Positions 1,947 to 37,349 of a DNA stretch of 64,000 bases are shown in pieces. This DNA is from a plasmid: the sequence record NZ_CP123987.1; one strand, written 5' to 3'. The position numbers and the translations under genes were made by a program. Under the pieces are notes generated by a model. That model ran no database searches. It saw only the letters and a list, made by a program, of their open reading frames with translations, and was not told where the DNA came from. How positions within the stretch are numbered: position 1 is the first letter of the stretch; every line of letters starts with the position of its first letter.

Positions 1947-1952
1947 GGAAAT

Positions 1953-3911: not shown

Positions 3912-5106
3912 AAGTATAGATGAAATTTTAAATGATCCACAGTTAAATGAAATTCTGGATAGATTAGAGACTAATAAAAAGAGTAAAAAGGTATTGAATG
4001 TTGATTCTGACATTAAAAATTTCATGGAAATTGTAGAGTGGGTTAAAGAAAATAGACATGAACCTGTAGCTGCTGAATATGGTAGTAATGAAAGAAAACT
4101 TTATAGCCGGTTAAAGGGAATTAAGAAAAGACATAGCGACGATGAGTTAGCTGAATATGATCCGGAACATCTATTAATAAAAGAAGTAATACCTGAATAT
4201 GAGACGTTAAAAAATAAGATAGATTTAAATAAAAAGTACGATACGTTAGATGATATCTTGAATGATGATTTGGGAATATTTGATGAATTAGATATAGATA
4301 AAGACTTAGAAAATAAGTTACATGATACAAGTAAGCTCAAACGTAAAATAACAGTTTCTACTTCAAATAGAGCTAGGCCAAAGAAAATGGCTAACTTTGC
4401 TCCTTATGAAAGAATGTTTAAGAAGATTCAAGCTGACTTAGCTAGTGGGAGAAGAAAGTTAGTTAGATTTAAGAATTATGAAATTGAAGAAGATAGATTT
4501 TATGTATTACGTGGGCAGTTAATCTATATCGACGCAATTGGCGATACTTTTGATGCTAATAACAACGATCGTTATAAGAAAAAAGATGCTAGAGTGCATA
4601 TTATCTATGAAAATGGAACTGAAAGTATGCCTTTACGTAATGGTCTGGCAGCTTCATTGTATGGTAGTAGTAAGGAAAGTAATGTTAAAGGCATGATGGT
4701 TACTGATCGTTTAGACAGTGAAGTAGAAATAAAAAATGATGATATTGTAACAGGTTACATTTATGTGTTAAAATCATTGAGTAATAATTCACAAATTTTA
4801 AGTATTAAGAATTTATACAAAATAGGTTTTACTACTGGAAGTATTGAGAAGAGAATTGCTAATGCTGAGAATGAATCCACGTATTTATATGCTCCTGTAA
4901 AGGAAGTCATGCAATTTAAAGTTATCAATTTGAAGGCTGAAAGTTTAGAAACTGCAATTCATCATGCTTTGGCTCAATATCAATTAGATGTTGATATTTT
5001 AGGCCCTAATGGTAGAAAAATTAAACCTAAAGAATGGTTTGTTGTGGATTTAGATACTATTTCAGAAATAGTTAATGAAATAGTGGCTAAACTCCAAATT
5101 GGATAA
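3904..5106 (+). CDS. T5orf172 / GIY-YIG-like domain protein (YeeC-like)
   Basis: C-terminal region YIYVLKS...KIGFTTGSIEKRI...YAPVKEV resembles the T5orf172 (GIY-YIG superfamily) domain. It is translationally coupled to the helicase and followed by a terminator. Confidence 0.6.
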   Translation: MPKSIDEILNDPQLNEILDRLETNKKSKKVLNVDSDIKNFMEIVEWVKENRHEPVAAEYGSNERKLYSRLKGIKKRHSDDELAEYDPEHLLIKEVIPEYETLKNKIDLNKKYDTLDDILNDDLGIFDELDIDKDLENKLHDTSKLKRKITVSTSNRARPKKMANFAPYERMFKKIQADLASGRRKLVRFKNYEIEEDRFYVLRGQLIYIDAIGDTFDANNNDRYKKKDARVHIIYENGTESMPLRNGLAASLYGSSKESNVKGMMVTDRLDSEVEIKNDDIVTGYIYVLKSLSNNSQILSIKNLYKIGFTTGSIEKRIANAENESTYLYAPVKEVMQFKVINLKAESLETAIHHALAQYQLDVDILGPNGRKIKPKEWFVVDLDTISEIVNEIVAKLQIG

Positions 5107-5177: not shown

Positions 5178-8100
5178 ATGGTTGTTGTATTAAGCGAAAA
5201 AGATAGAAGAGAAATATTTGATACTCTAACTAATAAACAAATAAGAGTTATTAAAAGATATGTATTAGATACAGTAAAATCAGAATTACTAACAAAGTAC
5301 TTTTGGAAAGGAATTAATTGGGACCTAATTGGCTTAGAATATGATCCGTTTTTTCACAAGAAACTTGCTGAGAGAGTGAGTCAGCCGAGACTCTTTTGTT
5401 CAGCATGTGGAAAGCCACTGAAAAATCAGTATATCGTTAAATCAAAACAAACTGGACACATACAAGAACTTGGATCAACCTGTTTATCTGATAGAGCAGG
5501 AATAGATATTCGAATAGTCAAAGAAATTCATAATAGTAGAAAAAGAATTAATCTTTTTCAAGATGAGATTCTTTCTGATTATAGAAATAAGGAGCGATTT
5601 CCGAATAGGATATATAAAGATATTATTGAAATTAATGCTGATAGGTCATGGGGCCCGAAGTTTCGAAGCAAGATATTAGATTTTAAGGGAGCTAACTTAC
5701 CACTTTTCCATAAGGATCATAATAAGCTTCTTAAAGATCTAAGCAATAGGCGAAATGAACTTGATGAAGAAGAACAATTTGGTCATAAAGATAAAGTTAG
5801 AAATAATATTCAAGAATACATTCATTTAAAACGTTATATTAATGAAATTATTCGAAAAGATCGAAGTTTAAATATAATTCGAAAAGAAGAAACATTAAGC
5901 GATGCTTTAGAGAGAATTACTAATATTAATAATAGTATTAATGATGATTTTGCTGTGATACCAATTTCAAAACAAAAAGAACTAGCTAAACAATATATTG
6001 ATCCATTTAATCAGAAATTAAGTCGGATTAGAAAAGTAAAACAAATAGATAGTAAGACTTGGATTGATGAGGCTGTTAAAATAAGTACAACAATTATGAG
6101 TATAGTTCAAGACTTTAATGAGATTAAAGATAAAAGGATAAATGAATATAAGCGTGTTGTTCAAGAGGTTAATGATGTAAGTAAAACTATTCCAGGGAGA
6201 AATCAATATTTTGAACCAGATTTGACCAAAAATATTGATGAAGAAATAGCCTTTTATAAGCAGTATTTGGAAGAGTTGAAGTTAGAAAAAAAGATTATTT
6301 ATTATCCAAAGAATTTAAAGAGGAGGTTGAGTGAAAAGGAAAGCAATCTTAAACGCAATCCAAGTGCAATCCAAGATGATTTAAGTAGAAGTGTGACACT
6401 TCCTGAAAAAGATGCACTAGTAAGATATTACTTATTAAAACAAGGATTTTATCAAGAGTTTACATTAGATGATTTTGATCAAAAAAGTGAAAGTGAACAA
6501 GTACAAATTCTAGAATACGCATCTTTAAAGGCAGAACTTATAAAAGAAATCTATAAATTTGAAATTGAGATTACTGCTAGAAAAAATGCAATGAATAATC
6601 TAATTAATGAAATTAATGGTCTAGCTAAGGGAATGTTAGACGATAGATACATTCATTCAGCAGAGAGGGATAGATACATTAGTACAAAAGTTCTTTATTA
6701 TGATAATAATTATTCAACGACTATACTAAGGCTTAAGAATGAAAAACAAGTTTTAGAAAATTTTGTTGATAAATTTTCAAAATATCCACAGTCTTTGTTA
6801 AATAACTTGGAAGTAGCTAGTGAAAAAATTTATAATGTTCCAAGTGACAGTAGAAGAATCATGCATGAATATGTCAAGCAACTTCATATATATGAAAAAA
6901 ATAGATTGTTAATTGATGATTATAGATTATTACTTGAATATTATTTTATGAAGAGTAAGGAAACTAATGATCTTAAAAAAATTAGTTTTAGTCAAGTAGC
7001 AGAAGTATTGACTAAAGAGCAATTTAAAAAATTAAATCATAAAAATAAATTAAATAGATTACAAGGTATTTATTTAATCAATGGATTAGTAACGGAAATA
7101 AAAAAATATATTATAGATGTTGATCTTGCAAAAAAGATTAAAAGACTTAATGAATTAAGGAAAGAAACTGATGGTAAAAATTATCAAGTACATCATCTTC
7201 CTCAAGAGATTTTGATGAAAGCGGATGTTGATGAAATCAAAGAATATAGCGATAAAATAGACAAGAATATTCAATACAAAGAGTATATTAAAAAGATAGA
7301 AGTACTAATCAACGAAATATATGAATTACAAGAAGAATTATTTGGCAATAATGTAAATCCAATTGATGTCTTAGCAGAACTTCAAAATAATCATAATTTA
7401 AAATTAGCTAAGACTAAATTTAAATCTTTAAGTAATATAAAGGAAGAACTAGAGATTGGACTGAAAAGAACACATAATATTTGGAGAGAGCCAGAATTTG
7501 ATGAAATTAGAACTCCCTTGCATCAGGTGATTGCTGAAAATATATTTATAGAAAAAGAGGATCTTGATACCTTTGAAAGTATTAAACAACAAGCAGAAGA
7601 ATTAGAATTAAGTCTAACTGATAATGAAAAACAAGTAGTAGAATATTTTTTGAGAAAGAAAAAATTTATGGATAGTAGTGGGAAAATCCAACAAAATTTA
7701 TATTTTAATAATATTGATTCAAAAACATTTGAATTAAATAAATTAAGTAGAAAAATTTTTATAGAATATTATGTATTAAAACTGAAGTTAGAAAAATACA
7801 TATACTACTACAATAAACTTGAAAGTAATTCTGCATATATTAGGGAACTTGAAAAAATTATCTCAATGAATGGTAAAATTGTAAAAACTAAGATAAAGAA
7901 AAGTTCTGGAGACCCTGAAGAATTATCAACGCTTTTAAAAGATAACTTGAATATTTTTAGAAGTACAAATAACAACAAATCCCAAGAATATGCATTGATA
8001 TTTAGTGACTACAATAACAAGATAATGAAGATCTTACATCTTTCTAAAAAACAAGGTAATAATCTTGAATTTATTAAAGAATCGATTGAATACTTAATGG

Positions 8101-8474
8101 ATAAATACCAAAGTAAAAAATATCTAGTTAAAAGTAATGCAAAATCTAAAAAATCTAAGTACTTAGATACGTATCAAAATGAACTAGATATTAAGTGGAA
8201 AAAAGATTTAATTGAATCAATGTTTAAAGTTGAAGATGAAATTAATTGGGATAAGGTGAAGTATAAAATTGTTAATTATTTAAGTGATTATCGAATTCAA
8301 ATTAACGACGAATGGAAACAAGAACTAATTAATTTATTATTTGAAATTAATTATAATTATTTTGGGAACTACTTATCTGATTTGAGTAAAGAAAATGAGG
8401 CAGCTTTAATTAATAGGAATATGTTATTTTTAGGTTTTATGAATAACACAATTAAACAATTATCAAAAATGTAA
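5178..8474 (+). CDS. Large hypothetical protein (1098 aa), K/E/N/I-rich; paralogue of the 8557-10992 protein
   Basis: Long uninterrupted ORF with a GGGGAAG RBS. The N-terminal module (FCSACGKPL...GSTCLSD...ANLPLFHKD) and the C-terminal module (NWDKVKYKIVNYL...LINLLFEINYNYFGNYLS) are shared with the next gene. No recognisable catalytic motifs were found. Confidence 0.75.
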   Translation: MVVVLSEKDRREIFDTLTNKQIRVIKRYVLDTVKSELLTKYFWKGINWDLIGLEYDPFFHKKLAERVSQPRLFCSACGKPLKNQYIVKSKQTGHIQELGSTCLSDRAGIDIRIVKEIHNSRKRINLFQDEILSDYRNKERFPNRIYKDIIEINADRSWGPKFRSKILDFKGANLPLFHKDHNKLLKDLSNRRNELDEEEQFGHKDKVRNNIQEYIHLKRYINEIIRKDRSLNIIRKEETLSDALERITNINNSINDDFAVIPISKQKELAKQYIDPFNQKLSRIRKVKQIDSKTWIDEAVKISTTIMSIVQDFNEIKDKRINEYKRVVQEVNDVSKTIPGRNQYFEPDLTKNIDEEIAFYKQYLEELKLEKKIIYYPKNLKRRLSEKESNLKRNPSAIQDDLSRSVTLPEKDALVRYYLLKQGFYQEFTLDDFDQKSESEQVQILEYASLKAELIKEIYKFEIEITARKNAMNNLINEINGLAKGMLDDRYIHSAERDRYISTKVLYYDNNYSTTILRLKNEKQVLENFVDKFSKYPQSLLNNLEVASEKIYNVPSDSRRIMHEYVKQLHIYEKNRLLIDDYRLLLEYYFMKSKETNDLKKISFSQVAEVLTKEQFKKLNHKNKLNRLQGIYLINGLVTEIKKYIIDVDLAKKIKRLNELRKETDGKNYQVHHLPQEILMKADVDEIKEYSDKIDKNIQYKEYIKKIEVLINEIYELQEELFGNNVNPIDVLAELQNNHNLKLAKTKFKSLSNIKEELEIGLKRTHNIWREPEFDEIRTPLHQVIAENIFIEKEDLDTFESIKQQAEELELSLTDNEKQVVEYFLRKKKFMDSSGKIQQNLYFNNIDSKTFELNKLSRKIFIEYYVLKLKLEKYIYYYNKLESNSAYIRELEKIISMNGKIVKTKIKKSSGDPEELSTLLKDNLNIFRSTNNNKSQEYALIFSDYNNKIMKILHLSKKQGNNLEFIKESIEYLMDKYQSKKYLVKSNAKSKKSKYLDTYQNELDIKWKKDLIESMFKVEDEINWDKVKYKIVNYLSDYRIQINDEWKQELINLLFEINYNYFGNYLSDLSKENEAALINRNMLFLGFMNNTIKQLSKM

Positions 8475-8556
8475 AAGAAGCTGATAATAAGATAAGTGCT
8501 GGACATTGTTCAGTGCTTTTTCAAAACTTAAATAATTTTCTGAAGGGGAGCTATGA

Positions 8557-10992
8557 ATGGAGATTTATACATTAACAGATGAAAAAAGACGAAAAATTTT
8601 GTCTAAATTAAAATACAATCAAATTCAAACTTTATCAGATTTCACAATGTATAAAGCAAAGTCAGAAATGATAACGAAAGATTTTGTTATTGCAAATGAC
8701 TGGAAACTTGCTGATATACGAGAAGATGCATTTTGGAATTTAAGATCTATGGATAATAACCAAGGAAAGAAAATTCCTAAATTAAAATGTGAATGTGGTA
8801 AAAATTTAAGATATCAATATATACTTAGATCAAGTAGTGGTAAAGAGCTAAAATTAGGGGTTACACACTTTGCTCAACATGCAGGGATTCCGCAAAATAT
8901 AGCTAGACAAATTCATAGTAGATTAAATAAAGTTATGATTTTTAGAGATGAAATCTTAACAAAATATAGTCAAGGACAGAGATTCCCTTTAGAAGAATAT
9001 AATGTAGTTTCTAAAAAGGGATTGCTGTTAGAATTTGGAGAAGACTTTAATTACAAGTTGAAAAAATTTAAAGATGCTAACTTACCACTATTTCATGTTG
9101 ATGAAAGTAGATTAATGAAAAAATATTTTAAAGCTAAAGAAGCAAACATAACATTGTATAGGATTATAGATGATGAAAATTTTGATGATAAATATTTATT
9201 ATTTAAAGAAACTTTAAATCGATATATTGATTTTTCCGAATTTATAGATACTAAAAGTGATGCTAAATGGTTAAGCAAGACTTTAATTGGTTGTTATGTA
9301 GTAGAACAAAGTATAGAAAATATAATGTTATTTAGTATTGGTAAGACTGGAAAGATTCTAAGAGAAGACTACATAAAAAGAACTAATACTAGATTAAAGA
9401 ATCTCCTGATAGATGAAAACTTCAAGCAAGGATTTATTCGGATTTTAGATGAAATTAAAGATAGTGTGTATGAAAAAGATGAAATAGATATCTTATTACG
9501 CAAAGAAGAAGAAATTTTAATTGATTTAAATGTACTTCAAGTTGAATTATACGGAAAAGATGCAATTCAAGATTCTCAAGATGAACAAACAAAACGTACA
9601 GCCAAAGAAATTGATAGAAATATAAATAGAATAAGAAAAAAGTATGATGAATATACTATTGTAAGAGAAGAGTATCTACAACTGATAAATAGTTATAGAA
9701 GTAAAAATCCTAAACTAGTTAGTAATTTAGAGAAGATTAGTGACGGGCAAATAATATTACCTGCTACTGTTGAAGAAGAATATCCAAAAATGATAGGCAA
9801 ATATAATAATTTACCCAAATTGAATAAAGATGAAAATAAAATAGTTAGATATTTTATGTTGAGACATAAGATAAATATTCCTGGTGAAGGTATAAAACAA
9901 GGGTATTCCTTATCAGCTTCTTTAGATAAATTCAAACGAGTGAAGGACGATGAAGTTAAAAAATTATTATTAGAATATTTAATTTTAAGAGTGAAACTTA
10001 CTGAAAAGATAATAGAATTTAAACAGCAAAATATGCGAGATATGTATTTTAAGGCAGTAAAAATAATTTCTAAATATGACGTTTATTCCTACAAGAAAGA
10101 TAGTAATATCGAATTGTATGATATAGACTTCTTGATTAATAACAGTTCAAATAACACAAATATAAAGTTAGATGAGGATATTAAAGTTTTAAAACCCGAA
10201 TTAGAGTCAATTATAGCTAAATCAAAACAAAAGGATTTGATTAGAGGGATTCTAAATGAATTAGTTAAGATATACAAAAAAACAGAGACACCTACTATGG
10301 ATATATTAAATATTCTTGATAAGATAGTGGCAAGAGAATCAACGTTTTATTATGGTGAGATACATAATTCATCTAATTTATGGAAACAAGAATTCATAAA
10401 TTTTTTGTATAAGGTAAATTATTATTATGTAGGAAATAAGCTTTCAAACGATTTTTTAAAGGTTGATAAGACAATTCTAAACAAGAATTTGGAGTTTCTT
10501 GTATTTATAGATGAAGTCGTTAAACCTGGATTAGAAACAGGGATACTGTCAAAAGAAGAAAGAATTAAAGTACATAGGAAAAAGTTAATCAAAAAAGTTA
10601 AATTAATATATGGAAAAAGTAAAAAATCTAAATCAATATATGGGGAAAATAAAAGAGTTAATAAAGATAAATTAGGAAAGTATTTTTATGGAATAAGAAG
10701 AAATTTAAGTGCAATAGATACGTTATCTGGCTATGGTAACCTTCAAAGAAGCGAACGTACAGAGAAATTGTTATCAAAGAGATTAAATATATCAAGTAAG
10801 AAAGTAGAAATGATTAGGAAGATTTTGGAAAAGTATCCACAGAGAGATTCTGTTGACTTTAAACGAGAGATTGAGTCTCTCCCAATACCTAAAGATATGC
10901 AAGAAAGAATAATTTTCTTTGAGGCAAATAAAAAAGATATACGAGAAATTAAAGATGCTTTTGAGATTAAAAATAAGCTGGTGATAAAATGA
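8557..10992 (+). CDS. Large hypothetical protein (811 aa), paralogue of the 5178-8474 protein
   Basis: Shares KCECGKNL...GVTHFAQH...ANLPLFHVD and the C-terminal FINFLYKVNYYYVGNKLS module with the upstream gene. RBS gaaggggag precedes it. Its stop overlaps the next start (ATGA). Confidence 0.75.
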   Translation: MEIYTLTDEKRRKILSKLKYNQIQTLSDFTMYKAKSEMITKDFVIANDWKLADIREDAFWNLRSMDNNQGKKIPKLKCECGKNLRYQYILRSSSGKELKLGVTHFAQHAGIPQNIARQIHSRLNKVMIFRDEILTKYSQGQRFPLEEYNVVSKKGLLLEFGEDFNYKLKKFKDANLPLFHVDESRLMKKYFKAKEANITLYRIIDDENFDDKYLLFKETLNRYIDFSEFIDTKSDAKWLSKTLIGCYVVEQSIENIMLFSIGKTGKILREDYIKRTNTRLKNLLIDENFKQGFIRILDEIKDSVYEKDEIDILLRKEEEILIDLNVLQVELYGKDAIQDSQDEQTKRTAKEIDRNINRIRKKYDEYTIVREEYLQLINSYRSKNPKLVSNLEKISDGQIILPATVEEEYPKMIGKYNNLPKLNKDENKIVRYFMLRHKINIPGEGIKQGYSLSASLDKFKRVKDDEVKKLLLEYLILRVKLTEKIIEFKQQNMRDMYFKAVKIISKYDVYSYKKDSNIELYDIDFLINNSSNNTNIKLDEDIKVLKPELESIIAKSKQKDLIRGILNELVKIYKKTETPTMDILNILDKIVARESTFYYGEIHNSSNLWKQEFINFLYKVNYYYVGNKLSNDFLKVDKTILNKNLEFLVFIDEVVKPGLETGILSKEERIKVHRKKLIKKVKLIYGKSKKSKSIYGENKRVNKDKLGKYFYGIRRNLSAIDTLSGYGNLQRSERTEKLLSKRLNISSKKVEMIRKILEKYPQRDSVDFKREIESLPIPKDMQERIIFFEANKKDIREIKDAFEIKNKLVIK

Positions 10993-11552
10993 AAAAACTA
11001 ACCATATCATTATTAGCATTAATAACAATTCTTTCCTGTGGAGCTACTACTGTCAGTGCAGCAAGATTTCGAACCTATCGTTATCATACGCCACGTGTGA
11101 GAAGAACACCAAGATACCGAATTCGCAAATCAGAGTATTCTTATAGCCATAAGATGAGTTCTGATCATAACAGCTATAGTCATCATGATAATATGTCGAG
11201 CTATCGTAGTAGCAGCTACTCTAATACAGGGTCGACAGCGACATTTACTGGATCGCAGACAGATGATGTTTTGAATAATCAGATTTCCAAGAAAAAATAT
11301 CGCAATGACTATTATCGTCAAAGTATTATTACAAATCCTTGGATCTGGGCGATGTTAATCAACCATCACGCTAGATATCGTCATAATGAGGAATATACTA
11401 GAGGCTATAATGCAGGTTTTGAAGCTAGTCAGCAAGATAAAAAAGAGGGGACGACTGAGCATCAAACATTATCTAGCGATAAAAGCGCACAACATACTAG
11501 ATACTATCTTCGAGGATATAAGGAAGGATATCGTGACGGAATAAATAGATAA
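10989..11552 (+). CDS. Small secreted Tyr/Arg/Ser/His-rich protein (187 aa)
   Basis: N-terminal signal peptide MKKLTISLLALITILSCGATTVSA/AR. The composition is low complexity with repeated GY..GY motifs. The ATGA overlap with the upstream gene indicates translational coupling. Confidence 0.7.
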   Translation: MKKLTISLLALITILSCGATTVSAARFRTYRYHTPRVRRTPRYRIRKSEYSYSHKMSSDHNSYSHHDNMSSYRSSSYSNTGSTATFTGSQTDDVLNNQISKKKYRNDYYRQSIITNPWIWAMLINHHARYRHNEEYTRGYNAGFEASQQDKKEGTTEHQTLSSDKSAQHTRYYLRGYKEGYRDGINR

Positions 11553-13198: not shown

Positions 13199-14289
13199 TT
13201 AACCTTTATAGGGTGTGAATGGTAGGTCTAAACTATCTGCAACAGCCTTGGAAGTAAGGTCTCCTTGGTGTGTATTAATTCCTGTAAGGATTGTGTTGTT
13301 TTCAGCAGCTGCTTTATCAATACCTTTATTAGCAATTTTAATTGCATAATGTACTGTTGCGCTGGAAAGTGCTTCTGTCGCTGTCTTTGGAACAGCACCA
13401 GGCATGTTAGCAACTGTGTAATGAATAACATCATGTGTTACATAGATTGGATCTTCGTGAGTTGTTGTTCTCACTGTTATTTCGAAGATACCACCTTGGT
13501 CGATAGGAATATCAACGATAACAGAACCAGGTTTCATGTTTTTAACCATTTCTTCTGTAACTAATTTTGGTGCCTTAGCTCCTGGGATTAGAACAGCACC
13601 AACTACTAAGTCAGCTTCTTCAACAACTTTCTTGATGTTAGCAGTATTAGACATTAAAGTTTGAATCTTTCCATCGAAAATATTGTCGATTTCGGCTAAG
13701 TGTTGAGCATTAATATCAAGGATTGTAACTTGTGCGCCCATACCAACAGCGATCTTAGCAGCGTTGAAACCTACAGTACCACCACCGATAATAGCAACTT
13801 TACCGCGATGTACACCGGAAACACCACTCAAAAGAATACCTTTGCCACCATGTGCTTGTTCTAAGAAATGAGATCCAACTTGGATTGACATACGGCCAGC
13901 GATTAGAGAAGTGGAAGTCCGCCGCCTCTACCAATCATTGTTTCGTATGCTACCCCTGTAACCTTCTTTTCGATTAAGGCTTCTGTTAATGGTTTATCTG
14001 CGGCCAAGTGAAGATAAGTATAGATGATTTGGCCTGGTTTGAAGTATTGGTATTCATTTTCCAAAGGTTCTTTAACTTTGATGACCATTTCTGTGTCCCA
14101 TGCTTCTTCTGCTGAACCCATCTTTGCACCAGCAGCGATGTATTCTTTATCTGGAAAACCGGAGCCAACCCCAGCTCCTTTTTCGACAATTACTGAATGG
14201 CCTGCATGAACTAAGCTTGCTACAGCACTTGGAGTAGCACCAACACGTTCTTCTTGCTTCTTGATTTCTTTAGGTACACCGATTAACAT
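13199..14289 (-). pseudogene. ald: Alanine dehydrogenase disrupted by a small deletion/frameshift
   Basis: The N-terminal part (MLIGVPKEIKKQEERVGATP...VAYETMIGRGGGLPLL) and C-terminal part (MSIQVGSHFLEQAHGGKGILL..., NAD-binding GGGTVGFNAA) lie in different frames. They are separated by a stop near 13891-13905, and about 6 residues (APMSEV-like) are missing. Confidence 0.75.
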
Positions 14290-14826
14290 AATAGGATACT
14301 CCTTTCCAAATAATGAATAAATATTCAAATAATTTCTCGTTTTTTGTTGATAGCGCTTTCAATCTAATACAAGAATAACACTTAAAAAGATAAATATCAA
14401 CCCTAAAATTCAAAGTTTGTGAAATCTAATTTGCCTTTAATTAGCGTGTTTTGGGAGTTTTTCACAAAGTTGATTTTATCCTGTTATTTATAAATCAACA
14501 TTAGAGTGATTATTAGAGAATAAGAAAATATACATTAAATGTATAATTAGTTTGCGGTTAGATTTAGCTAAGTAAATAAATTTAAAATATATTGGACGGG
14601 ATATTTAAAGGAATTTAAAAAAGATAGAATATTAAACTATTAAAAAAATAGATAAATAAAGAAACCTTGATTTAATAATCTCATTATTTTTTAAGGCTGA
14701 GTAGAGGGAAATGTAGATATTGGTCGCTTTTTATGATGATTTTGCTTATCTAAAAAATAAAATAGCACCTTATTTTTACCACAATATACAATATAGGTAA
14801 AGATAAGATGCCTTTTTACTAATATT

Positions 14827-18814: not shown

Positions 18815-18832
18815 GAGAAAGAGACACAAGAA

Positions 18833-18865
18833 GACCCTAACTCAATTACAAGTTAGGGTCTTTTG
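18833..18865 (+). terminator. Rho-independent terminator
   Basis: Stem gaccctaac / gttagggtc followed by ttttg. Confidence 0.7.
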
Positions 18866-18985
18866 ATTATCTGTTGATGAAAATTTGTTTGAATTTGTTA
18901 ATTTTCTAGATTAAGAGCATTTTAGCTTTTAAAAGCTTGCAAAATAAAGATTTTTTATAATATTATTAGTACTGAAAAGAATGGG

Positions 18986-21900
18986 GTGAGAGTAGTGTAT
19001 ACAAATAATTTTGAATATAACAATGAAGCAATAAAAGATTTTGCAGATTTTGGTAAAAAAGCAGAAAAATATATCTATCAGTCTCCACAAGATGCATTAA
19101 CAGCTTTTAGAACTTTAGGGGAAGCATTATTAAATGATATCTATGAAAAAGATCGAATTTTTGTGGAAATAAGAGTTACTGCTAGCGAATACAGCACACA
19201 AGATAAAAAAATTAAGTTATTATCTACATATAATAGAAAAATAGGTGAAGTTTATTATCCTGAAAATATCATCAATAACTTCAAAACTATTAAAAATACA
19301 GGAAATATTGCTGCACATAATATTAAAAGTAAGTTTTTTACAGTAGAAAAGGCCTTAGAAATAGAAAAGGTTATGTATAAAATCTGGTCTTGGTATCTTG
19401 AAATTTATACAAGTGAGGAATGTTTACCTTACGTTAAGCCGGAAAATACAGCTGTCAATAATGATGAAGAGTTAAAAGATGAAGTTGATAAATTAAAAAA
19501 GAAAATCGAAGAACTGAAAAAACGTAATGAACAACAGAAAGAAAAAGTGGATAGTTCTAAGAAACAAGAACGTCAAAGTCGAAGTAGAAAATATCAACAA
19601 ACTCATGATTTATCAGAAGAAGAAACACGAGAAATCATTGATCAACAATTACGTGATGCTGGTTGGGAAGCAAATACTAAGAAGTTAAATAACAATAAAA
19701 ATAAAAATAAAACACTTCCTAAAAAAGGTAAGAGAATGGCAATTGCTGAATGGGTACTTTCTAACGGTAAACGTGCTGATTATGCTTTATTTGAAGGTTT
19801 GAATTTAGTTGGAGTGGTGGAAGCAAAAGAATGGGGAAAGGACATTCCTGGTGATCTTACTCAAGCTAAAGAGTACGCTAAGTTAATTACAAAGGATCCT
19901 GATGTGTATAACCTAGTTGTTAAAGATGATGCTACTTATAAAGTGCCTTTTATCTATTCTACTAATGGCCGTCCTTATATCAGACAATATAAGTCTAAAT
20001 CTGGTATTTGGTACTTAGATACACGTAATCTTAATAATCATGCCAAACCATTACAAGCTTGGCATTCACCAGACGATTTAAAGTTAAAACTAAGTGCAAA
20101 GCCAGAAAAAGAAGCTAACGAAGACTTAAAAAATGAAAGTATGTTAAGTTTTGCTAATCGCTACTATCAAGTAGAAGCTATTAGAGCAGTAGAAAATGCG
20201 ATTATTGATGGTAAGAAAAGAATTCTGTTACAGATGGCAACAGGTACTGGTAAGACACGTACTGCAATTGCATTAATGTACCACTTATTAAAGGCTAAAA
20301 AAGCCAGAAGAATTTTATACCTTGTAGATAGGAATTCTTTGGGACGTCAAACTGAAGATACGCTTAAAAATCTAAAAGTAGACGCAACTTCAATTGCTGA
20401 TATTTATGGAGTTAAAGCTTTAAGTGGTGGAAAGGTAGAGAAGGACACTAAAATTCATATCGCAACAGTGCAAAGTATGATAAGTCGCCTATTTAGTGGA
20501 ATAAATTATTTAGTGGAATAAATAATGATGAAAGTGTTACGGTAGGAACTTATGATTTTATCATTGTTGACGAAGCTCATCGCGGTTATGCTTTGGATCG
20601 AGATATGAGAGAAGGCGATGAAAGAATCTATGATGAACAAGACTATGTCAGTCAATATCGTCGTGTAATAGACTTTTTTGACGCAACTTCAATTGCTATG
20701 ACTGCCACACCTGCCAAACATACAGTAGAGATATTTGGTAGTCCAATCTATTCATATAGTTATCGTCAAGCAGTACTTGATGGGTGGTTGATCGATCATG
20801 ATACACCTTATGTTTTTAAAACAGAATTGTCAGAAAATGGTATAAACTTTGAAGTCAATGAAGACGTAACTGTATATGATAGTGAAAAAAATACCATCTC
20901 AACGGAAACTTTAGATGAAAATATGAATTTTGATGTTAGTCAGTTTAATCGTCGCGTAATTGCCAATGATTTTAATCGCGTAATTGCAGAAAAATTAACT
21001 GAATACATTGATCCAACTGATGAAATGGCTGGTAAAACTCTAATTTTTGCAGTTACTGATAAGCATGCGGATGATTTTGTAATTGCTTTGAAAGATGCTT
21101 ATGAAAAAGCAGGTATTCCAGTGCCGGATGATGCTATTCAAAAGATTACTGGGCAAACATATGAATATGGTCAGGCAATAAAGAACTTTAAAAATGAAAC
21201 TTATCCAAATATTGTTGTAACTGTAGATTTATTAACAACTGGAATTGATGTTCCGGAAATCACTAACATTGTCTTTTTAAGGCAGGTACGTTCGCGTATT
21301 TTATACGAACAAATGATTGGTCGTGCTACACGTCCATGTGAAAAGATTCAAAAAGATCATTTCAATATTTATGATGCGGTTGGAATCTACGATAAGATGA
21401 AGAGCGTGTCTAATATGAATATGGTAGTAAAAGATCCTAATCATAATCTAGATTATTATGTTAATAAGACAAATCCTTTAGATTATGAAGATGAAGCAGA
21501 TTATGAAACTTATCGAGAAGATCTTCTTGCTACTATACAAAGAAAGATTAAACGAATCCCTGAAGACAAATTATCTGAATTTTGTGATTTTGCTAAGATT
21601 AATTCGACAAATGAATGGACACAATCTATAAAGAATATGTCTAAAGAAGAGTTGTCGCAAGAGATGCCAAAAATTGCAAAATTAGCCAGTTTTAAATATA
21701 ACGATGCCAAGATGATTATTTCAGATAAAGAAGATAGGTTTAAAAATGTGGACCGATCATATGGAGATAGTGGTAAAAAGCCAGAAGATTATCTGGAAAG
21801 TTTTAATCAATATATCCAAAATAATCAAAATGAATTGCTCGGTTTAGAGATTATTAAAACTCGTCCGCAAGATTTATCTTTATCGGAACTGAAAGAAATT

Positions 21901-22290
21901 GTATTAACGTTGAGTCAATATGGTTATAATGAGAGAGATTTGCAAAATGCTTGGAAGAAAGTTAAAGGCGAACAAACTGCTGCAAGTATCATTAGTTTTA
22001 TCAGACAAGCAATGATGACAACTGATAGACTAGAAGATCATGAGGCAATGGTAAATAGAGCGATGAATAAAGTTTATGGTATGACCGAATGGACAGTTAT
22101 GCAAAGAAAATGGTTAGACAAAATTGCTAAACAATTAAAGCAAAATGAAGTTTTAGGTAAAAATGCTCAACAAGCTTTTGATACAATTCCAGCTTTTAAG
22201 AGTAATGGTGGTTATAATCGAGTGAATAAATTACTTGATGGCAAAGCTGATGAAATTATCAAAATTATTAATGAAAATTTATATGCTTAG
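18986..22290 (+). pseudogene. hsdR: Type I restriction enzyme R subunit HsdR, interrupted by a 17-bp tandem duplication
   Basis: Helicase motif I QMATGTGKTRTAIAL lies in ORF 1. DEAHRGY, motif VI QMIGRATRP and a C-terminal domain lie in ORF 2 (20593-22290) in another frame. Removing one copy of tatttagtggaataaat restores ...SRLFSGINNDESVTVGTYDFIIVDEAHRGY.... Confidence 0.85.
20490..20523 (+). repeat. Perfect 17-bp tandem duplication (tatttagtggaataaat x2) inside hsdR
   Basis: Two adjacent copies are read directly from the sequence. Length 17 is not a multiple of 3, so the duplication causes a frameshift. Confidence 0.9.
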
Positions 22291-22305: not shown

Positions 22306-23757
22306 GTGAACAATCAAGAAATTGTAGCGAAGTTATGGAATGAAGCAAATGTATTACGTGATGATGGAATTACTTATCAAGATTACGTAACCGAATTAAC
22401 GTATATTTTATTTTTAAAGATGAGTAAGGAACAAGGTCAAGAAGATGATATTCCTGAAAAATATCGTTGGGATAGTTTAGTAGAAAAAGATGGACTTGAA
22501 TTGAAGAACTTCTATCGTCAATTATTAATAGATTTAGGCAATCCTGAGATCGTTAAGAACAATAAAATTAACTTAATTTATAGTAATGCTTCAACAAGTA
22601 TTGATGAACCAGCTAATTTAGAAAAAATAATCAAAGATATTGATGAACTTGACTGGTTTTCAGCACGTGAAGAAGGTCTAGGTGCTTTATATGAAGGATT
22701 GTTAGAGAAAAACGCCAGTGAAACTAAATCAGGTGCCGGACAATACTTTACTCCACGTGTTTTAATCAATGTTATGGTTAAGTTGATGAAACCACAAGTA
22801 GGCGAAAGATTGAATGATCCAGCTGCTGGAACTTTTGGATTTATGATTGCTGCTAATCAATATCTTCGTGATCAAACAGATGATTATTTTGATTTGACTG
22901 ATGATCAACAAAAATTTGAGATAGAAGAAGCATTTTCTGGTATGGAATTAGTACCAACAACCCACCGTTTAGCGATGATGAATGAGTATCTACATGGTAT
23001 GGATGGCAAGTTAGAACTTGGTGATTCTTTATCTGCCAATGGGAAATGGATGAAAGATTATGACTTAGTATTAACTAATCCACCATTTGGAACTAAAAAG
23101 GGTGGTGAACGTGCTACTCGTGATGATTTAACTTTTGAAACTTCAAATAAGCAATTGAACTTCTTACAAACGATTTATAATTCGTTGAAGAAGAATGGTA
23201 AAGCACGTGCAGCAGTTGTTGTGCCAGATAATGTTCTGTTTGCGGATGGGGTAGGAGAAGAAATTCGTAAGGACTTATTGAATAAGTGTAATTTGCATAC
23301 AATTTTGCGCTTGCCAACAGGAATTTTCTACGCTCAAGGTGTACAAACTAATGTGTTGTTCTTTACTCGTGGTGAAAGCGATAAAGAAAATACCAAAGAA
23401 ACTTGGATTTACGATATGCGCAATAATATGCGTTCATTCGGTAAGCGTAGTCCGTTAAATGATAAGGACTTTACTGATTTTATCGAAAAATACCAAGCTG
23501 ATGATATGAGTAAGCGACAAGAAGATTATGATAGTCAAAGTAATCCTAATGGTCGTTGGCGTAAATTTACGATTGATGAAATTATGGCACGTCCTAATAC
23601 AAGCCTAGATATTTCTTGGATGACTGAAGAAAGCGACGAAGAAGATAAGTCATTGAGTGAAATCTTAGTAGAAATGAACGAAAAATCAATGACAATCTCA
23701 GCAGCTATTGCAGAGTTAACAGATATTTTGGAAGGGATAGATGATAGTGAAGAATAG
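22306..23757 (+). CDS. hsdM: Type I R-M DNA methyltransferase subunit HsdM
   Basis: Motif I DPAAGTFGF and motif IV LTNPPFGTKKGG. GTG start. The gene overlaps the hsdS start. Confidence 0.9.
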   Translation: MNNQEIVAKLWNEANVLRDDGITYQDYVTELTYILFLKMSKEQGQEDDIPEKYRWDSLVEKDGLELKNFYRQLLIDLGNPEIVKNNKINLIYSNASTSIDEPANLEKIIKDIDELDWFSAREEGLGALYEGLLEKNASETKSGAGQYFTPRVLINVMVKLMKPQVGERLNDPAAGTFGFMIAANQYLRDQTDDYFDLTDDQQKFEIEEAFSGMELVPTTHRLAMMNEYLHGMDGKLELGDSLSANGKWMKDYDLVLTNPPFGTKKGGERATRDDLTFETSNKQLNFLQTIYNSLKKNGKARAAVVVPDNVLFADGVGEEIRKDLLNKCNLHTILRLPTGIFYAQGVQTNVLFFTRGESDKENTKETWIYDMRNNMRSFGKRSPLNDKDFTDFIEKYQADDMSKRQEDYDSQSNPNGRWRKFTIDEIMARPNTSLDISWMTEESDEEDKSLSEILVEMNEKSMTISAAIAELTDILEGIDDSEE

Positions 23758-25234
23758 CAGTTTGAGTGTCGATACAGAAAAGTTACGTAAGAAAATTCTA
23801 GATTTGGCGATGCGTGGGAAATTGGTTCCACAAGATAGCCAAGATGAGCCAGCAAGTGTCTTATTAGAGAAGATAAAAGAAGAAAAGGCTCAATTAATCA
23901 AAGAAAAGAAAATCAAGAAATCTAAACCACTTCCAGAAATCACAGAAGAAGAAAAGCCTTTTGAAATTCCAGAAAGTTGGGAATGGGTAAGGTTAGGGGA
24001 AATATTAGATGTTAGAGATGGTACGCATGACACACCAAAATATTTAGATTCAGGTGTTCCACTAATAACAGCTAAAAATTTAGACAATGGAAGCATAGAT
24101 TTTAACAATGTAAATTATATTTCTTTTGAAGATGCGAAAAAAATAAATCAACGTTCGAAAGTTGATAAAGATGATATTATCTTTGCAATGATAGGAACTA
24201 TTGGAAATCCTGTATTAGTTCAAGAAGAATATAGCATGGCTATAAAAAATGTTGCGTTGTTAAAGAAAATTTATTATCTCAATATGAAATATATTTTAAG
24301 ATGTATACAATTTTCAGAAAATAGGATGTATAAGAAGTCCAATGGTGGAAATCAGAAATTTATTTCATTGAAAAAGATACGAGAATTCACAATCCCTCTC
24401 CCACCATTAGCCGAACAAAAGCGTATTGTTGCTAAAGTCGAAGAATGTATGCAGGCAATTAAGACAATTGAAGACAGTAGCAAAGAATACGAAAAGCTGG
24501 AAAATCAATTGGATAAGAAAGTACTTGATTTGGCGATGCGTGGAAAATTAGTCCCAAAAGATAGCCAAGATGAACCAGCAAGTGTCCTATTAGAGAAGAT
24601 TAAAGAAGAAAAAGCTCAATTAATCAAAGAAAAGAAGATTAAAAAATCTAAGCCACTTCCAGAAATCACAGAAGAAGAAAAGCCTTTTGAAATTCCGGAA
24701 AGTTGGGAATGGGTAAGGTTAGGGGAAGTGGCTAAAAATGAGTTATACTCAATGGCTGATGGGCCTTTTGGCAGTAATTTAAAAAAAGATCATTATACAC
24801 TTAGTCAAGAAGTTAGGATTATTCAATTAAGTAATATAGGCGAAGATGGCTGGCGTAATGAAAATAAAAAATATACTACATTTGATCATTTGAAAGAAAT
24901 TTCAAGAAGTGAAGTAAAAAGTGGTGATATTGTTATTGCTAAAATGATGCCAGCTGGAAGAGCCATTATAGTTCCTGACATAGAGAAAAAATATGTTTTA
25001 TCGTCAGATGCCGTTAAATTTATTCCAGATACTAGAATTTTCAAGCCATATATGTTGCATTTAATCAATAGTCCAGTATTTAAAAAGCAAGTGCAATCAG
25101 ATTTACAAGGTTCTACACGACCAAGAACAAGTATAACAAAGCTTAAAAATATTTTGTGCCCTCTCCCACCATTAGCTGAACAAAAGCGGATTGTTACTAA
25201 AATTGAAGAAATAGATATATATTTAAAAAATTAA
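23741..25234 (+). CDS. hsdS: Type I R-M specificity subunit HsdS with two target-recognition domains
   Basis: Two target-recognition domains are each preceded by the near-identical LDLAMRGKLVP.DSQDEPASVLLEKIKEEKAQLIKEKKIKKSKPLPEITEEEKPFEIPESWEWVRLGE segment. The PLPPLAEQKRIV motif occurs twice. Confidence 0.85.
   Translation: MIVKNSSLSVDTEKLRKKILDLAMRGKLVPQDSQDEPASVLLEKIKEEKAQLIKEKKIKKSKPLPEITEEEKPFEIPESWEWVRLGEILDVRDGTHDTPKYLDSGVPLITAKNLDNGSIDFNNVNYISFEDAKKINQRSKVDKDDIIFAMIGTIGNPVLVQEEYSMAIKNVALLKKIYYLNMKYILRCIQFSENRMYKKSNGGNQKFISLKKIREFTIPLPPLAEQKRIVAKVEECMQAIKTIEDSSKEYEKLENQLDKKVLDLAMRGKLVPKDSQDEPASVLLEKIKEEKAQLIKEKKIKKSKPLPEITEEEKPFEIPESWEWVRLGEVAKNELYSMADGPFGSNLKKDHYTLSQEVRIIQLSNIGEDGWRNENKKYTTFDHLKEISRSEVKSGDIVIAKMMPAGRAIIVPDIEKKYVLSSDAVKFIPDTRIFKPYMLHLINSPVFKKQVQSDLQGSTRPRTSITKLKNILCPLPPLAEQKRIVTKIEEIDIYLKN
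23795..24727 (+). repeat. Pair of ~205-bp direct repeats (23795-24003 and 24519-24727, >90% identical) inside hsdS
   Basis: The nucleotide-level repeat is seen directly in the sequence. Confidence 0.8.
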
Positions 25235-25559: not shown

Positions 25560-26354
25560 ATGACTAAAAATACCATTAATAAGATTATATATTTTGATAA
25601 AGAAACTATTCGTAATATACTCCAGGAAAGAGATAGAGGAGAACTTACACGAAAAACTGATATATCTTCTAATTTACAGACAGAAGGATCGGTAAAGTCA
25701 GAAGGTTCAGCTAAATTAAAGCTCAATGTTCCGCTAATTTCAAGATTATCTTTTTTATTTACAGGGAATATAAAAGCATCATATTTTTTTAATAAGGATA
25801 GTGTAACTACAATTTCTTCAACAGAAATTTCTGAATTTGAACAATTAAAACCACTATTAGAAGTTCTTCGAGACACCCAGATATCGGATATTGAAAATTC
25901 TTCTACGTTTTTACGTGTAGCTGGTGGATATCTTAAAATCATTAAAGGTGGTATCGAAGGGGTAGATACACAAGAGTTTAAGTCCGTTATGGATAGCTAT
26001 GATGGATACGATACATACAAAGTAAGTGATGAAAAGTACGTTCGTTTTAACAATTCTGCCTTTGTGAGCAATTACAAAAGGAATGATTTACTTACTACAA
26101 CAATGACGTTATATTGTATTCCAGTAGGTAAGTTTGATAAAAAGCGCTTTGATTTTATTAAAGAAGTTGGGAAAATGGAACGTCTAATTACTTCAACAGA
26201 GAAATCAGATGTATTATCGGATATATACCCTCCTAAAGATCAATTTTTAAATGAACACGTTGAAAATCATGTTGATGATGAAAAAGATAATTTAATAACA
26301 CTTTATGATGTAATTTATGCTTGTATTATATCGGAGGTGGAAAATGGAAACTAA
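25560..26354 (+). CDS. Hypothetical protein (264 aa), partner of the downstream AAA+ ATPase
   Basis: Strong RBS aaggag 7 nt before the ATG. It overlaps the downstream gene. No known domain. The sequence is AT-rich. Confidence 0.6.
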   Translation: MTKNTINKIIYFDKETIRNILQERDRGELTRKTDISSNLQTEGSVKSEGSAKLKLNVPLISRLSFLFTGNIKASYFFNKDSVTTISSTEISEFEQLKPLLEVLRDTQISDIENSSTFLRVAGGYLKIIKGGIEGVDTQEFKSVMDSYDGYDTYKVSDEKYVRFNNSAFVSNYKRNDLLTTTMTLYCIPVGKFDKKRFDFIKEVGKMERLITSTEKSDVLSDIYPPKDQFLNEHVENHVDDEKDNLITLYDVIYACIISEVENGN

Positions 26355-27465
26355 TATGAGAAATTATCACATTGTTATTGGTTCAAAAAGATATTTTGAC
26401 GAATATTTACCAGATTTTAAGGAAGAAGATATTGTATATGATTTTTCAGATTCAATAAAACTTTCTGATGCGTTTAGAGAAAGTGGAAGAATAAACGATC
26501 ATTTTGTTAGTATACTCGTTGTAAGAAATAATAATTATAATGGAATTGTTGAAAATGCCCATGATCGTTTGGGCCCATTAATTGAAGAATTAACAACAAA
26601 TAGTGCTGAAATATATATTCATAATCCGCCTCGTATTTTGATGAAGTATTTAGAAGAACAGCATGAGCGTTTACCAATAAAATTATCTATTTCAAGTGAA
26701 AAATATGAAATAAATAGAGATCCTAATATATTTATAAATAATATTAAAGAAATCTCGTCACATATATTAGGTCAGCAGTCAGCTCTTACAGAAATAAGCA
26801 AGAGCTTGTGGTATCTCACAACGGTTAAAAGAGAGAAGCCATATGTAATAATGTTGTATGGTAATAGCGGGCTTGGAAAAACTGAATTGGTAAGAGAGAT
26901 TGCAAAAAAATTCTTTGATGGAAAATTTTTGGAAAAACACTTATCTATGTTTAAAAATGATAATTATACAAATTATTTTTTTGGAGATAAACCTAATCGA
27001 CGTAGTATAGGATTTGATTTGTTAGAACGCGAATCTAACTTAATTTTTTTTGATGAATTAGATAAATGTCCAGAATATTTCTTTTCTACATTCTACACAT
27101 TATTTGATAATGTTCAATTTAAGGATTCTACCTATGATGTAAATGTATCAGGAACTGTAATTATACTCACTTCTAACTATAATTCGAAAGAAGAAATGCA
27201 AGAAAAACTAGGACTGCCTATTTTTTATCGTATTGATAAATTTATTCATTTTAATGAATTTAATTGTAATACTATATACAGAATTGTTCAAAATGAAATT
27301 TCGGAAAGAAAAGCTGAATATAATGATAAAATTTCTCCAGATGCAATATATGCTGCTGTTAGTCCACTTGTTTCAACATCAGGAGAAAATGCTCGAACAA
27401 TAAAATATAAGGTTCAGCAAGTAATAGAGGATCTTCTATTCGAAGAAATACACGAAAAATTTTAG
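26344..27465 (+). CDS. Clp-D2-like AAA+ ATPase with an unknown ~170-aa N-terminal domain
   Basis: An RBS ggaggtgg precedes the ATG at 26344. ILGQQSALTEI...VIMLYGNSGLGKTELVREIAKK matches the sensor/Walker A region of ClpA/B D2. Walker B is LIFFDELDKC. Confidence 0.7.
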   Translation: METNMRNYHIVIGSKRYFDEYLPDFKEEDIVYDFSDSIKLSDAFRESGRINDHFVSILVVRNNNYNGIVENAHDRLGPLIEELTTNSAEIYIHNPPRILMKYLEEQHERLPIKLSISSEKYEINRDPNIFINNIKEISSHILGQQSALTEISKSLWYLTTVKREKPYVIMLYGNSGLGKTELVREIAKKFFDGKFLEKHLSMFKNDNYTNYFFGDKPNRRSIGFDLLERESNLIFFDELDKCPEYFFSTFYTLFDNVQFKDSTYDVNVSGTVIILTSNYNSKEEMQEKLGLPIFYRIDKFIHFNEFNCNTIYRIVQNEISERKAEYNDKISPDAIYAAVSPLVSTSGENARTIKYKVQQVIEDLLFEEIHEKF

Positions 27466-36071: not shown

Positions 36072-37349
36072 ATGAAGAAGATGAGTGATTTAGAGTATCA
36101 TTATGGATTGAAAATGCGTATTTATCCAAGCACTAACCAAAAGAAGATTATTAAAATCAATGGTAACATTGCTAGAACTGTTTATAATAAAATGGTTGCT
36201 ATTGACCAAGAATTATACAAGTTAAAACAAGTTAAGTTACCTATTGATATTGTTAAGGAACGTATTAAAGAATTAAAAAGTCGTAAAAACGCTAGAAATT
36301 TGTCTAATCATTATCAGTACATGCAAGATAAGAATATTGATAGTTTAGCTAAAGCTAACGCTATTCAAAATTATCAAAAAGCGTGGAAGATGTTTAGAAA
36401 AGTACATTTATCTGGTACACCTAAGTTCCATAAAAAGAGTTACCGTTTGAGTTATCAAACTAATGCTCAATATGGTAAAGATGCTAAAATGGACGTTTAT
36501 TCTGCTAGCGTAAAATTTCTTGATAAGAATCATATTAGTTTGCCTAAATTAGGTAGATTAAGAGTATCTGGTTCTCACCGTCGTATTATTGACAATAAAG
36601 ATGATATTAGAATCGGTACTGTTACTATCTCTAAAGATACAGCTGATAGATATTTCGTATCAATGCAATTAGGCTCTGATACACCATTTGTAAAGAAATT
36701 AGCTAAAACTAATTCTCAAGTTGGTGTTGATTTGAATACAGAGAATTTTTTGACCGATAGTTTTGGTAAAGTGGTAGCTAATCCGCGTTATTACCGTACT
36801 ATTAAAGGTAAAATAGCTAAAGCTCAAAAAGTATTATCTAGAAGGCAAAGAAGAGCTAAAAAAGAAAAACGTTCTTTACGTGATAGTAAAAATTATCAAA
36901 AACAAAGAGTTTTAGTAGCTAAGCTCCATGACAGAGTGCGCAATCAACGTAATAACTTTTTGAATCATGTTACTACTGCACTTATCAATAACCACGATTT
37001 GGTGGTAGTAGAAAATTTGAGAAGTAAAAATATGCTCAAGAATCATGCTTTAGCTATGTCTATATCCGATGTTGGCTGGAGAAGCTTTTTACAGAAATTG
37101 GATTATAAAGCTAATTTGTATAACAGAACAGTTATATCAGTTAATCCTAAAAATACAACACAGACTTGTTATGCTTGTGGCTTTATAATGGGAACAAATG
37201 GAACTGATAAGTTGAATCTCAAGGATAGAGAATGGACTTGTCCTAATTGTCATGAACACCATATTAGAGATTGGAATGCAGCTAAAAATATTCTAGCTAA
37301 AGGATTAGACAAGTTAGAAAAACCAAAAAACTTAGCTAAAGCTAAGTAA
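36072..37349 (+). CDS. tnpB: TnpB (IS605 OrfB, RNA-guided RuvC-like nuclease)
   Basis: RuvC-like core and C-terminal zinc finger CYACG...CPNCHEHHIRDWNAAKNI. Confidence 0.9.
   Translation: MKKMSDLEYHYGLKMRIYPSTNQKKIIKINGNIARTVYNKMVAIDQELYKLKQVKLPIDIVKERIKELKSRKNARNLSNHYQYMQDKNIDSLAKANAIQNYQKAWKMFRKVHLSGTPKFHKKSYRLSYQTNAQYGKDAKMDVYSASVKFLDKNHISLPKLGRLRVSGSHRRIIDNKDDIRIGTVTISKDTADRYFVSMQLGSDTPFVKKLAKTNSQVGVDLNTENFLTDSFGKVVANPRYYRTIKGKIAKAQKVLSRRQRRAKKEKRSLRDSKNYQKQRVLVAKLHDRVRNQRNNFLNHVTTALINNHDLVVVENLRSKNMLKNHALAMSISDVGWRSFLQKLDYKANLYNRTVISVNPKNTTQTCYACGFIMGTNGTDKLNLKDREWTCPNCHEHHIRDWNAAKNILAKGLDKLEKPKNLAKAK

Follow-up and report, generated by a model that had tools for sequence, protein, structure and literature searches.

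A 17-bp tandem duplication that splits the type I restriction gene hsdR is probably a recent, sporadic loss-of-function mutation rather than a programmed switch

In type I restriction–modification (R–M) systems the ATPase motifs of the R subunit are needed for both translocation and cleavage, and the M2S1 complex methylates without HsdR, as established in the EcoKI, EcoR124I and EcoAI literature. R is the only type I subunit that can be dispensed with without lethality; in the decay of R–M systems towards orphan methyltransferases, the restriction gene is broken first and the methyltransferase kept. Staphylococcus aureus RN4220 reportedly carries a nonsense mutation in sau1hsdR by which restriction is abolished and foreign DNA accepted, with methylation kept. 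Here we analyse a stretch of 64,000 nucleotides from sequence record NZ_CP123987.1 (‘the window’, a term used throughout for the whole stretch), in which the hsdR gene of a type I system is split by a perfect 17-bp tandem duplication and its partner genes, hsdM and hsdS, are full length. An annotation made from the letters alone (the ‘sequence-only reading’) had suggested that the duplication could act as a population-level ON/OFF switch for restriction, or else be an assembly or sequencing artefact; our analysis indicates that it is probably a sporadic, recent loss-of-function mutation and not a programmed switch.

The locus resembles that of RN4220 in having a single lesion in the R subunit beside intact HsdM and HsdS, with loss of restriction predicted; it differs in having a 17-bp tandem duplication where RN4220 has a point mutation, in the probable operon that joins hsdR to hsdM and hsdS, and in a phenotype that is predicted. 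With R–M decay it likewise shares the disruption of hsdR alongside intact hsdM and hsdS but, unlike advanced decay, it would represent the earliest stage of the process, there being no secondary lesions and the intact allele still being dominant in the clone.

Other type I systems vary in activity or specificity within a clone: those with hsdS invertons (PMC7672463), NgoAV with its simple-repeat hsdS (PMC9577141) and spnIII (PMC6620402). Whilst the system described here is also type I, the phase-variable systems rely on dedicated machinery or on long simple-repeat tracts, and it is hsdS or hsdM that is acted on; here hsdR alone is affected, with neither a recombinase nor a repeat tract. Nor does hsdR possess the hypermutable tract of a simple-sequence contingency locus: it offers two 17-bp copies and, as its longest homopolymer, an A7, with runs of at least six at average density (3.03 per kb, vs 2.80 window-wide), and is not enriched in slippage-prone tracts. 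Copy number, which in such a locus varies among close strains, is only ever one or two among the strains compared here.

A closer mechanistic parallel comes from genes in which tandem duplications are described as reversible OFF states: cap3A, cap8E and tts of Streptococcus pneumoniae (Waite et al. 2001, 2003; as cited in PMC11163986 and PMC4022640) and phcA of Ralstonia solanacearum (Poussier 2003; as cited in bioRxiv 10.1101/2023.04.27.538605), the pneumococcal work being cited in PMC4022640 for the expectation that a 9-bp insertion reverts at a frequency no higher than ~1e-5. As in those genes, hsdR carries a perfect, frameshifting tandem duplication within its open reading frame (ORF), precise excision of which would restore the ON state. 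In cap3A, cap8E, tts and phcA, however, a single gene frequently acquires many different duplications and reversion has been demonstrated, whereas here we see one duplication in one subclone; the recurrence of different duplications that marks the cap3A type is absent from hsdR.

The limits of the duplication are clear. At 20490–20523 the raw sequence contains the unit TATTTAGTGGAATAAAT twice, head to tail, and Tandem Repeats Finder (TRF) reports the same unit over the same interval (period 17, 2.0 copies, 100% matches); as the bases flanking the copies differ (C/T before, T/A after), the repeat is unambiguously exactly 2 × 17 bp. It is the only perfect tandem duplication with a period of at least 17 in the 64-kb window, and 30 first-order Markov simulations of the window produced none, so that chance is no explanation for it. 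Near-identical relatives have exactly one copy of the unit, and the one-copy hsdR allele presents neither a pre-existing repeat nor microhomology at the site. A hairpin or quasi-palindrome was considered as the source of the duplication and rejected, the TATTTA/TAAATA stem being no stabler than its shuffles.

Two same-strand ORFs abut the repeat in the ORF list of the window (18986–20521, 511 amino acids (aa); 20593–22290, 565 aa), and TRF, raw sequence and ORF list all agree with the sequence-only reading in placing the split in hsdR exactly at the perfect 17-bp tandem duplication. Translation of the 5′ fragment gives 507 native residues, then YLVE, and a premature stop at 20519–20521; helicase motif I (GTGKT, 20243–20257) falls within the fragment, as do a nuclease-type motif (D265...E279-A-K281) and, at the N-terminus, a DUF4145-like domain. 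The 3′ remnant lies in the −1 frame, which is open from 20497, meets its first start codons at TTG 20593 and ATG 20605 (gene callers picked the 561-aa form) and ends at 22290, with no obvious ribosome-binding site ahead of its starts. The DEAH codons of helicase motif II (Table 1) fall past the premature stop and ahead of any ATG, GTG or TTG in the downstream frame; motif II is consequently in neither fragment. Removal of one copy in silico yields a 3288-nt ORF encoding a 1095-aa HsdR that reads through ...SRLFSGINNDESVTVGTYDFIIVDEAHRGY..., which bears out the earlier claim that deleting one copy restores a continuous protein across the motif II region.

Two routes by which the split gene might still yield an enzyme were rejected: the 22-nt overlap of the two frames (20497–20518) is without an X XXY YYZ slippery heptamer, which argues against rescue by −1 ribosomal frameshifting, and a working two-piece HsdR is all but ruled out by the position of the DEAH box outside both ORFs. 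Judged from the sequence, translational rescue of the split gene appears implausible.

The restored 1095-aa HsdR matches Pfam ResIII (6.9e-23), Helicase_C (3.6e-12) and EcoEI_R_C (1e-34), with HSDR_N scoring under its cut-off (22.1 vs 25.1 bits), and PADLOC REase_I at 5.1e-188; it also matches the solved HsdR fragment in PDB entry 3H1T (6e-41), with the GTGKT of motif I and the DExH box aligned. The nuclease, superfamily 2 (SF2) helicase and C-terminal domains of a type I R subunit are all present on this restored sequence, the gene as found being split and without motif II (the 5′ fragment matches ResIII, DEAD and, weakly, HSDR_N; the 3′ fragment Helicase_C and EcoEI_R_C). Ahead of the usual nuclease region, residues ~25–124 (window 18986–19360) resemble an extra N-terminal domain of DUF4145 type (weak Pfam match, 8.7e-4). 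The N-terminus also matches the N-terminal part of PADLOC PDC-M16A (1.4e-17), and D127E, a substitution considered below, falls just after this domain.

Adjoining hsdR are genes for an N6-adenine HsdM and an HsdS with two target-recognition domains, at a spacing of 15 nt between hsdR and hsdM and with an overlap between hsdM and hsdS. Both are full length by Pfam and PADLOC (Table 1), as the sequence-only reading had held; the HsdM protein is identical to that of L001, a strain with intact hsdR, and the L001 version of HsdS is of equal length, with 4 aa differences. A Shine–Dalgarno-like AAAGGAAG of its own lies upstream of the GTG start of hsdM. Since a consensus scan finds no terminator-like site in the interval between hsdR and hsdM, the three genes likely form an operon, and the same scan places a promoter-like site upstream of hsdR.

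With hsdR broken and hsdM and hsdS full length, we infer a restriction-minus, modification-plus state, a prediction that we consider reasonable and well founded. The sequence-only reading had proposed just such a state: its genetic basis is observed, whilst the loss of restriction and the continued methylation are predicted from it.

We propose that the type I genes of the window, hsdR-hsdM-hsdS, form a chromosomal operon with a Dodola pair behind it, and that an error of replication, arising spontaneously in one recent subclone, gave rise to the 17-bp duplication within hsdR. With the frame shifted, translation would break off once residue 507 is passed, at a point that separates motif I of the helicase from motif II, stranding the DEAH box in an untranslatable gap such that no ATP-driven translocase or nuclease would form and restriction would be lost. 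With hsdM (provided with its own putative ribosome-binding site) and hsdS untouched, the M2S1 methyltransferase should keep modifying the genome—R-minus, M-plus being the sole order of loss expected not to be self-lethal. Close relatives included, hsdR has suffered no fewer than four independent small frameshifts, of which the duplication is one. Exact loss of one copy, a mechanistically possible event, could bring the gene back, though only at a low rate, as for any short tandem duplication.

That the two-copy allele is real can be seen from independent assemblies. An exact look-up of both hsdR fragments finds it in the Logan assemblies of six SRA runs (SRR24294555 and SRR26908821/28/30/37/38, the latter five possibly representing one stock), whose contigs are 100% identical to the window over 3.6–15 kb; the duplication is accordingly in the reads of more than one library. 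A literature search on the accessions of these runs and assemblies gave no metadata. Each of the six passes the duplication site unbroken, so the two-copy allele is the majority in every run, minority alleles being invisible in assemblies. A 17-bp duplication is shorter than reads and than the usual assembly word length, such that words spanning the junction come only from real reads; the six independent run assemblies that contain the junction rule out the artefact that the sequence-only reading had entertained. The sequence common to the one- and two-copy alleles was absent from JGI metagenome contigs in two scans for exact patterns.

By its sequence the window derives from Ligilactobacillus salivarius: its DegV is 96% identical to that of L. 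salivarius DSM 20555, and the NCBI names of the members of the HsdR cluster agree. Homology searching gave a cluster of 283 L. salivarius sequences; an HsdR search for related loci in genome contigs returned none, and the contig of the species representative ends just past degV and is thus uninformative on the operon. On exact look-up, 252 contigs and 494 index blocks contain the intact consensus allele (P0135; D127, one copy), as against 6 contigs for the two-copy allele. Every other allele examined (L001, L002 and L015–L025) has one copy, two copies occur in one subclone only, and no other copy number is seen in the public assemblies examined.

Three carriers of P0135 (L023, L024 and L025, the last being NCBI assembly GCA_040924775.1) differ from the window by just 4–7 single-nucleotide polymorphisms (SNPs) plus the 17-bp indel over 20–23 kb, which marks the duplication as very young. 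Comparison of the restored window protein with P0001 gives three differences, E127D, P825L and Q874R; in an 11-allele hsdR alignment no lineage but L001/L002 has L825 and R874, D127E being the sole substitution private to the window. Beyond the duplication, hsdR has this one private, conservative change and no accumulated secondary lesions. The restored one-copy protein with E127 is absent from a collection of 15 billion proteins, as judged by an exact look-up that covers full-length consensus gene calls only and to which minority alleles are invisible. Together these comparisons show the duplication to be derived, of very recent origin and limited to a small subclone within a clone that is itself very common. 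The sequence-only reading had envisaged that relatives might share the lesion in a further decayed form, as a fixed pseudogene would; they carry the intact gene.

In the window the nearby ald gene for alanine dehydrogenase (13199–14328, minus strand) is a frameshifted pseudogene (230 + 141 aa) by virtue of a 13-bp deletion relative to DSM 20555, where it is intact. As the same deletion is found in L023–L025, in which hsdR is intact, the ald lesion is old and shared and the hsdR duplication young; L001 has instead an independent 2-bp (TG) deletion in ald. Some relatives (L015, 604–1445; L024, 7355–8196) have degV, near ~16630 of the window, in two pieces of 99 and 181 aa, through a 1-bp deletion by alignment in L024 and as a split gene call only in L015, with assembly error possible in both.

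Three further, independent frameshifts in hsdR were found as shorter 3′ pieces in the 283-sequence cluster (Table 1); duplications of at least 6 bp are not among them. hsdM is intact alongside all three, as is hsdS wherever the contigs reach. The four hsdR lesions total 29 contigs, and all four broken alleles are 0–2 SNPs from the consensus in the 11-allele alignment, none with secondary decay. Similar small frameshifts are carried by ald and degV, neighbouring genes without a role in defence.

Table 1. Features of the hsdR locus in window coordinates, with the other hsdR frameshifts of relatives in hsdR nucleotides (nt).
Feature	Position	Strand	Basis or remark
Terminator-like hairpin ahead of the hsdR promoter-like site	18829-18864		Consensus scan
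Promoter-like site TTGCAA-18-TATTAT upstream of hsdR	18937..18966	+	Consensus scan only
hsdR 5′ fragment, 511 aa	18986..20521	+	Pfam ResIII/DEAD/HSDR_N, translation, 3H1T alignment
D127E, T>A at hsdR nt 381	19366..19366	+	Sole hsdR change, apart from the duplication, that is private to the window lineage; 11-allele alignment
Duplication copy 1, TATTTAGTGGAATAAAT	20490..20506	+	TRF, sequence; second copy absent from L001, L002, L023-L025
Duplication copy 2	20507..20523	+	Reading frame moved by +17 nt (+2)
Helicase motif II codons (DEAH, residues 523-526 of restored protein)	20569..20580	+	Aligns with DECH box of 3H1T
hsdR 3′ remnant, 565 aa (TTG 20593) or 561 aa (ATG 20605)	20593..22290	+	Helicase_C, EcoEI_R_C
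hsdM, full length, 483 aa, GTG start	22306..23757	+	Pfam N6_Mtase 1.3e-66; PADLOC MTase_I 1.7e-205, end to end
hsdS, full length, 497 aa, two target-recognition domains	23741..25234	+	Pfam Methylase_S, 2 stretches; PADLOC Specificity_I 11-496, 1.5e-131
-1 A in A5 run	hsdR nt 252		L020-L022; 17 contigs
+1 A in A6 run	hsdR nt 735		L015, L016
-5 bp, one AAGAA lost from (AAGAA)2	hsdR nt 1228		L018, L019

Three considerations weigh against sporadic, recent loss of function, the reading that we favour: short tandem duplications within ORFs are known to revert; the uniform youth of the four broken alleles fits purging or reversion, and does not separate sporadic loss from cycling; and the premature stop could have a polar effect on expression of hsdM and hsdS.

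Of the alternatives, the one that survives best is a genuine, reversible switch of the bet-hedging kind, in which the OFF duplication reverts by RecA-independent slipped misalignment and cultures are mixtures of R+ and R− cells; we nevertheless regard it as unlikely. Two perfect, adjoining copies are the best substrate for precise deletion, the product would be an intact ORF with a single conservative private change in a gene free of secondary decay, and the reversible OFF duplications of pneumococcal cap3A/cap8E/tts and Ralstonia phcA stand as precedents; reversion, moreover, rises with the length of a duplication, such that one of 17 bp might revert somewhat more often than one of 9 bp. Against a switch, the want of a repeat or microhomology in the one-copy allele would make the forward, ON-to-OFF event rare and unprogrammed, all six runs of the subclone assemble through the two-copy allele, and public assemblies hold only one- and two-copy alleles. 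The protein collection, for its part, lacks a one-copy E127 allele, and no precise-excision revertant was seen on the window haplotype by a look-up that finds only full-length consensus gene calls.

The same idea can be put more broadly, namely that hsdR, within an L. salivarius clone of wide distribution, cycles between intact and slippage-broken states and reverts at a rate per generation of ~1e-5 or above, and in this form too we think it has only a small chance of being correct. Four independent, uniformly young lesions of slippage type speak for it: if true, cycling would account for their youth and lack of decay, and would confer a transient permissiveness to foreign DNA with methylation guarding the genome. 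Yet the other lesions differ from the duplication in site and kind, A5/A6 tracts are no commoner in hsdR than elsewhere, and ald and degV show comparable frameshifts outside defence. The population-level switch proposed in the sequence-only reading is not supported by a two-copy allele that is private to a young subclone, is without further copy-number variants and has no one-copy E127 counterpart in the protein collection.

Less probable again is that loss of restriction was selected in the lineage, through relief from self-restriction, easier uptake of plasmids or prophages, or laboratory handling and transformation of a probiotic strain, the duplication being one convergent solution among several. 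The four independent lesions, on 29 contigs, strike hsdR only and spare hsdM (and hsdS, where contigs reach), and Limosilactobacillus reuteri became 10- to 100-fold more transformable when the hsdR of a type I system was knocked out (PMC6122466). Intact alleles nonetheless dominate, one of them alone being on 252 contigs; with hundreds of assemblies sampled, selection need not be invoked for four lesions in a non-essential gene of 3.3 kb; and a pattern confined to hsdR is expected under drift, R being the sole subunit that can be lost without lethality.

That the duplication is an artefact, or that the split gene works by ribosomal frameshifting or two-piece assembly, is highly improbable, given a junction present in six independent run assemblies, a frame overlap without a slippery heptamer and a DEAH box outside both ORFs.

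The window contains no recombinase and no spare or inverted copies of hsdS. Within hsdS there is a direct repeat of 214 bp (~92% identical; 23788–24001 and 24514–24727), corresponding to the two conserved spacer regions. Shuffling of hsdS, suggested by repeated contig breaks 216 nt into the gene, was rejected as this internal repeat explains them; it accounts for the seven independent Logan contigs that end at window position 23956.

Directly downstream of hsdS, at 25560–27465, PADLOC identifies a Dodola pair, DolA (7.7e-52; Pfam DUF6414) and DolB (4.1e-106; an AAA ATPase), intact in both the window and its relatives. The type I system and Dodola make up a small defence island flanked by an HU-like gene and by orf317, itself preceded by degV and a GNAT gene; upstream of hsdR are the core genes degV, GNAT acetyltransferase, queH, amino-acid permease and ald. 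A megablast search of the R–M operon against plasmids gave only a 73% match, to a Haliovirga methylase, placing the operon on no known plasmid, and neither an Rfam nor a tRNA scan of the window gave a hit.

Further from hsdR, the start of the window (1–5106) may constitute a second defence cluster. The first base falls within a gene for a type IIG restriction-methyltransferase of the MmeI family, whose ORF is open at base 3 and whose nuclease end is off the window (MmeI_Mtase, TRD and C domains; PADLOC REase_MTase_IIG, 3.5e-224), followed by a ResIII/DEAD helicase (1953–3911) and a T5orf172/GIY-YIG-like protein (3904–5106). Three consecutive ORFs of 1098, 811 and 187 aa come next (5178–11552), without a Pfam, NCBIfam or PADLOC match and located in the part of the window lowest in guanine and cytosine (~25% at 6–10 kb); they are possibly a horizontally acquired island. 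At 36072–37349 lies a gene for an IS200/IS605-family TnpB RNA-guided endonuclease (NCBIfam, 2e-93).

In concept the sporadic loss of hsdR adds little, as loss of hsdR first is a well-known route of R–M decay and reversible tandem duplications are already familiar. For the organism itself, the subclone is predicted to be deficient in restriction by this type I system whilst still methylating, and both its transformation and the entry of phages and plasmids may meet less of a barrier than in its near-identical relatives; such transformability, if the prediction holds, would be relevant to the use of L. salivarius as a probiotic and engineering chassis. At the level of the population, the interest lies in four independent and uniformly young hsdR frameshifts within one widespread clone, a pattern that bears on the question of whether loss of restriction is transiently selected.

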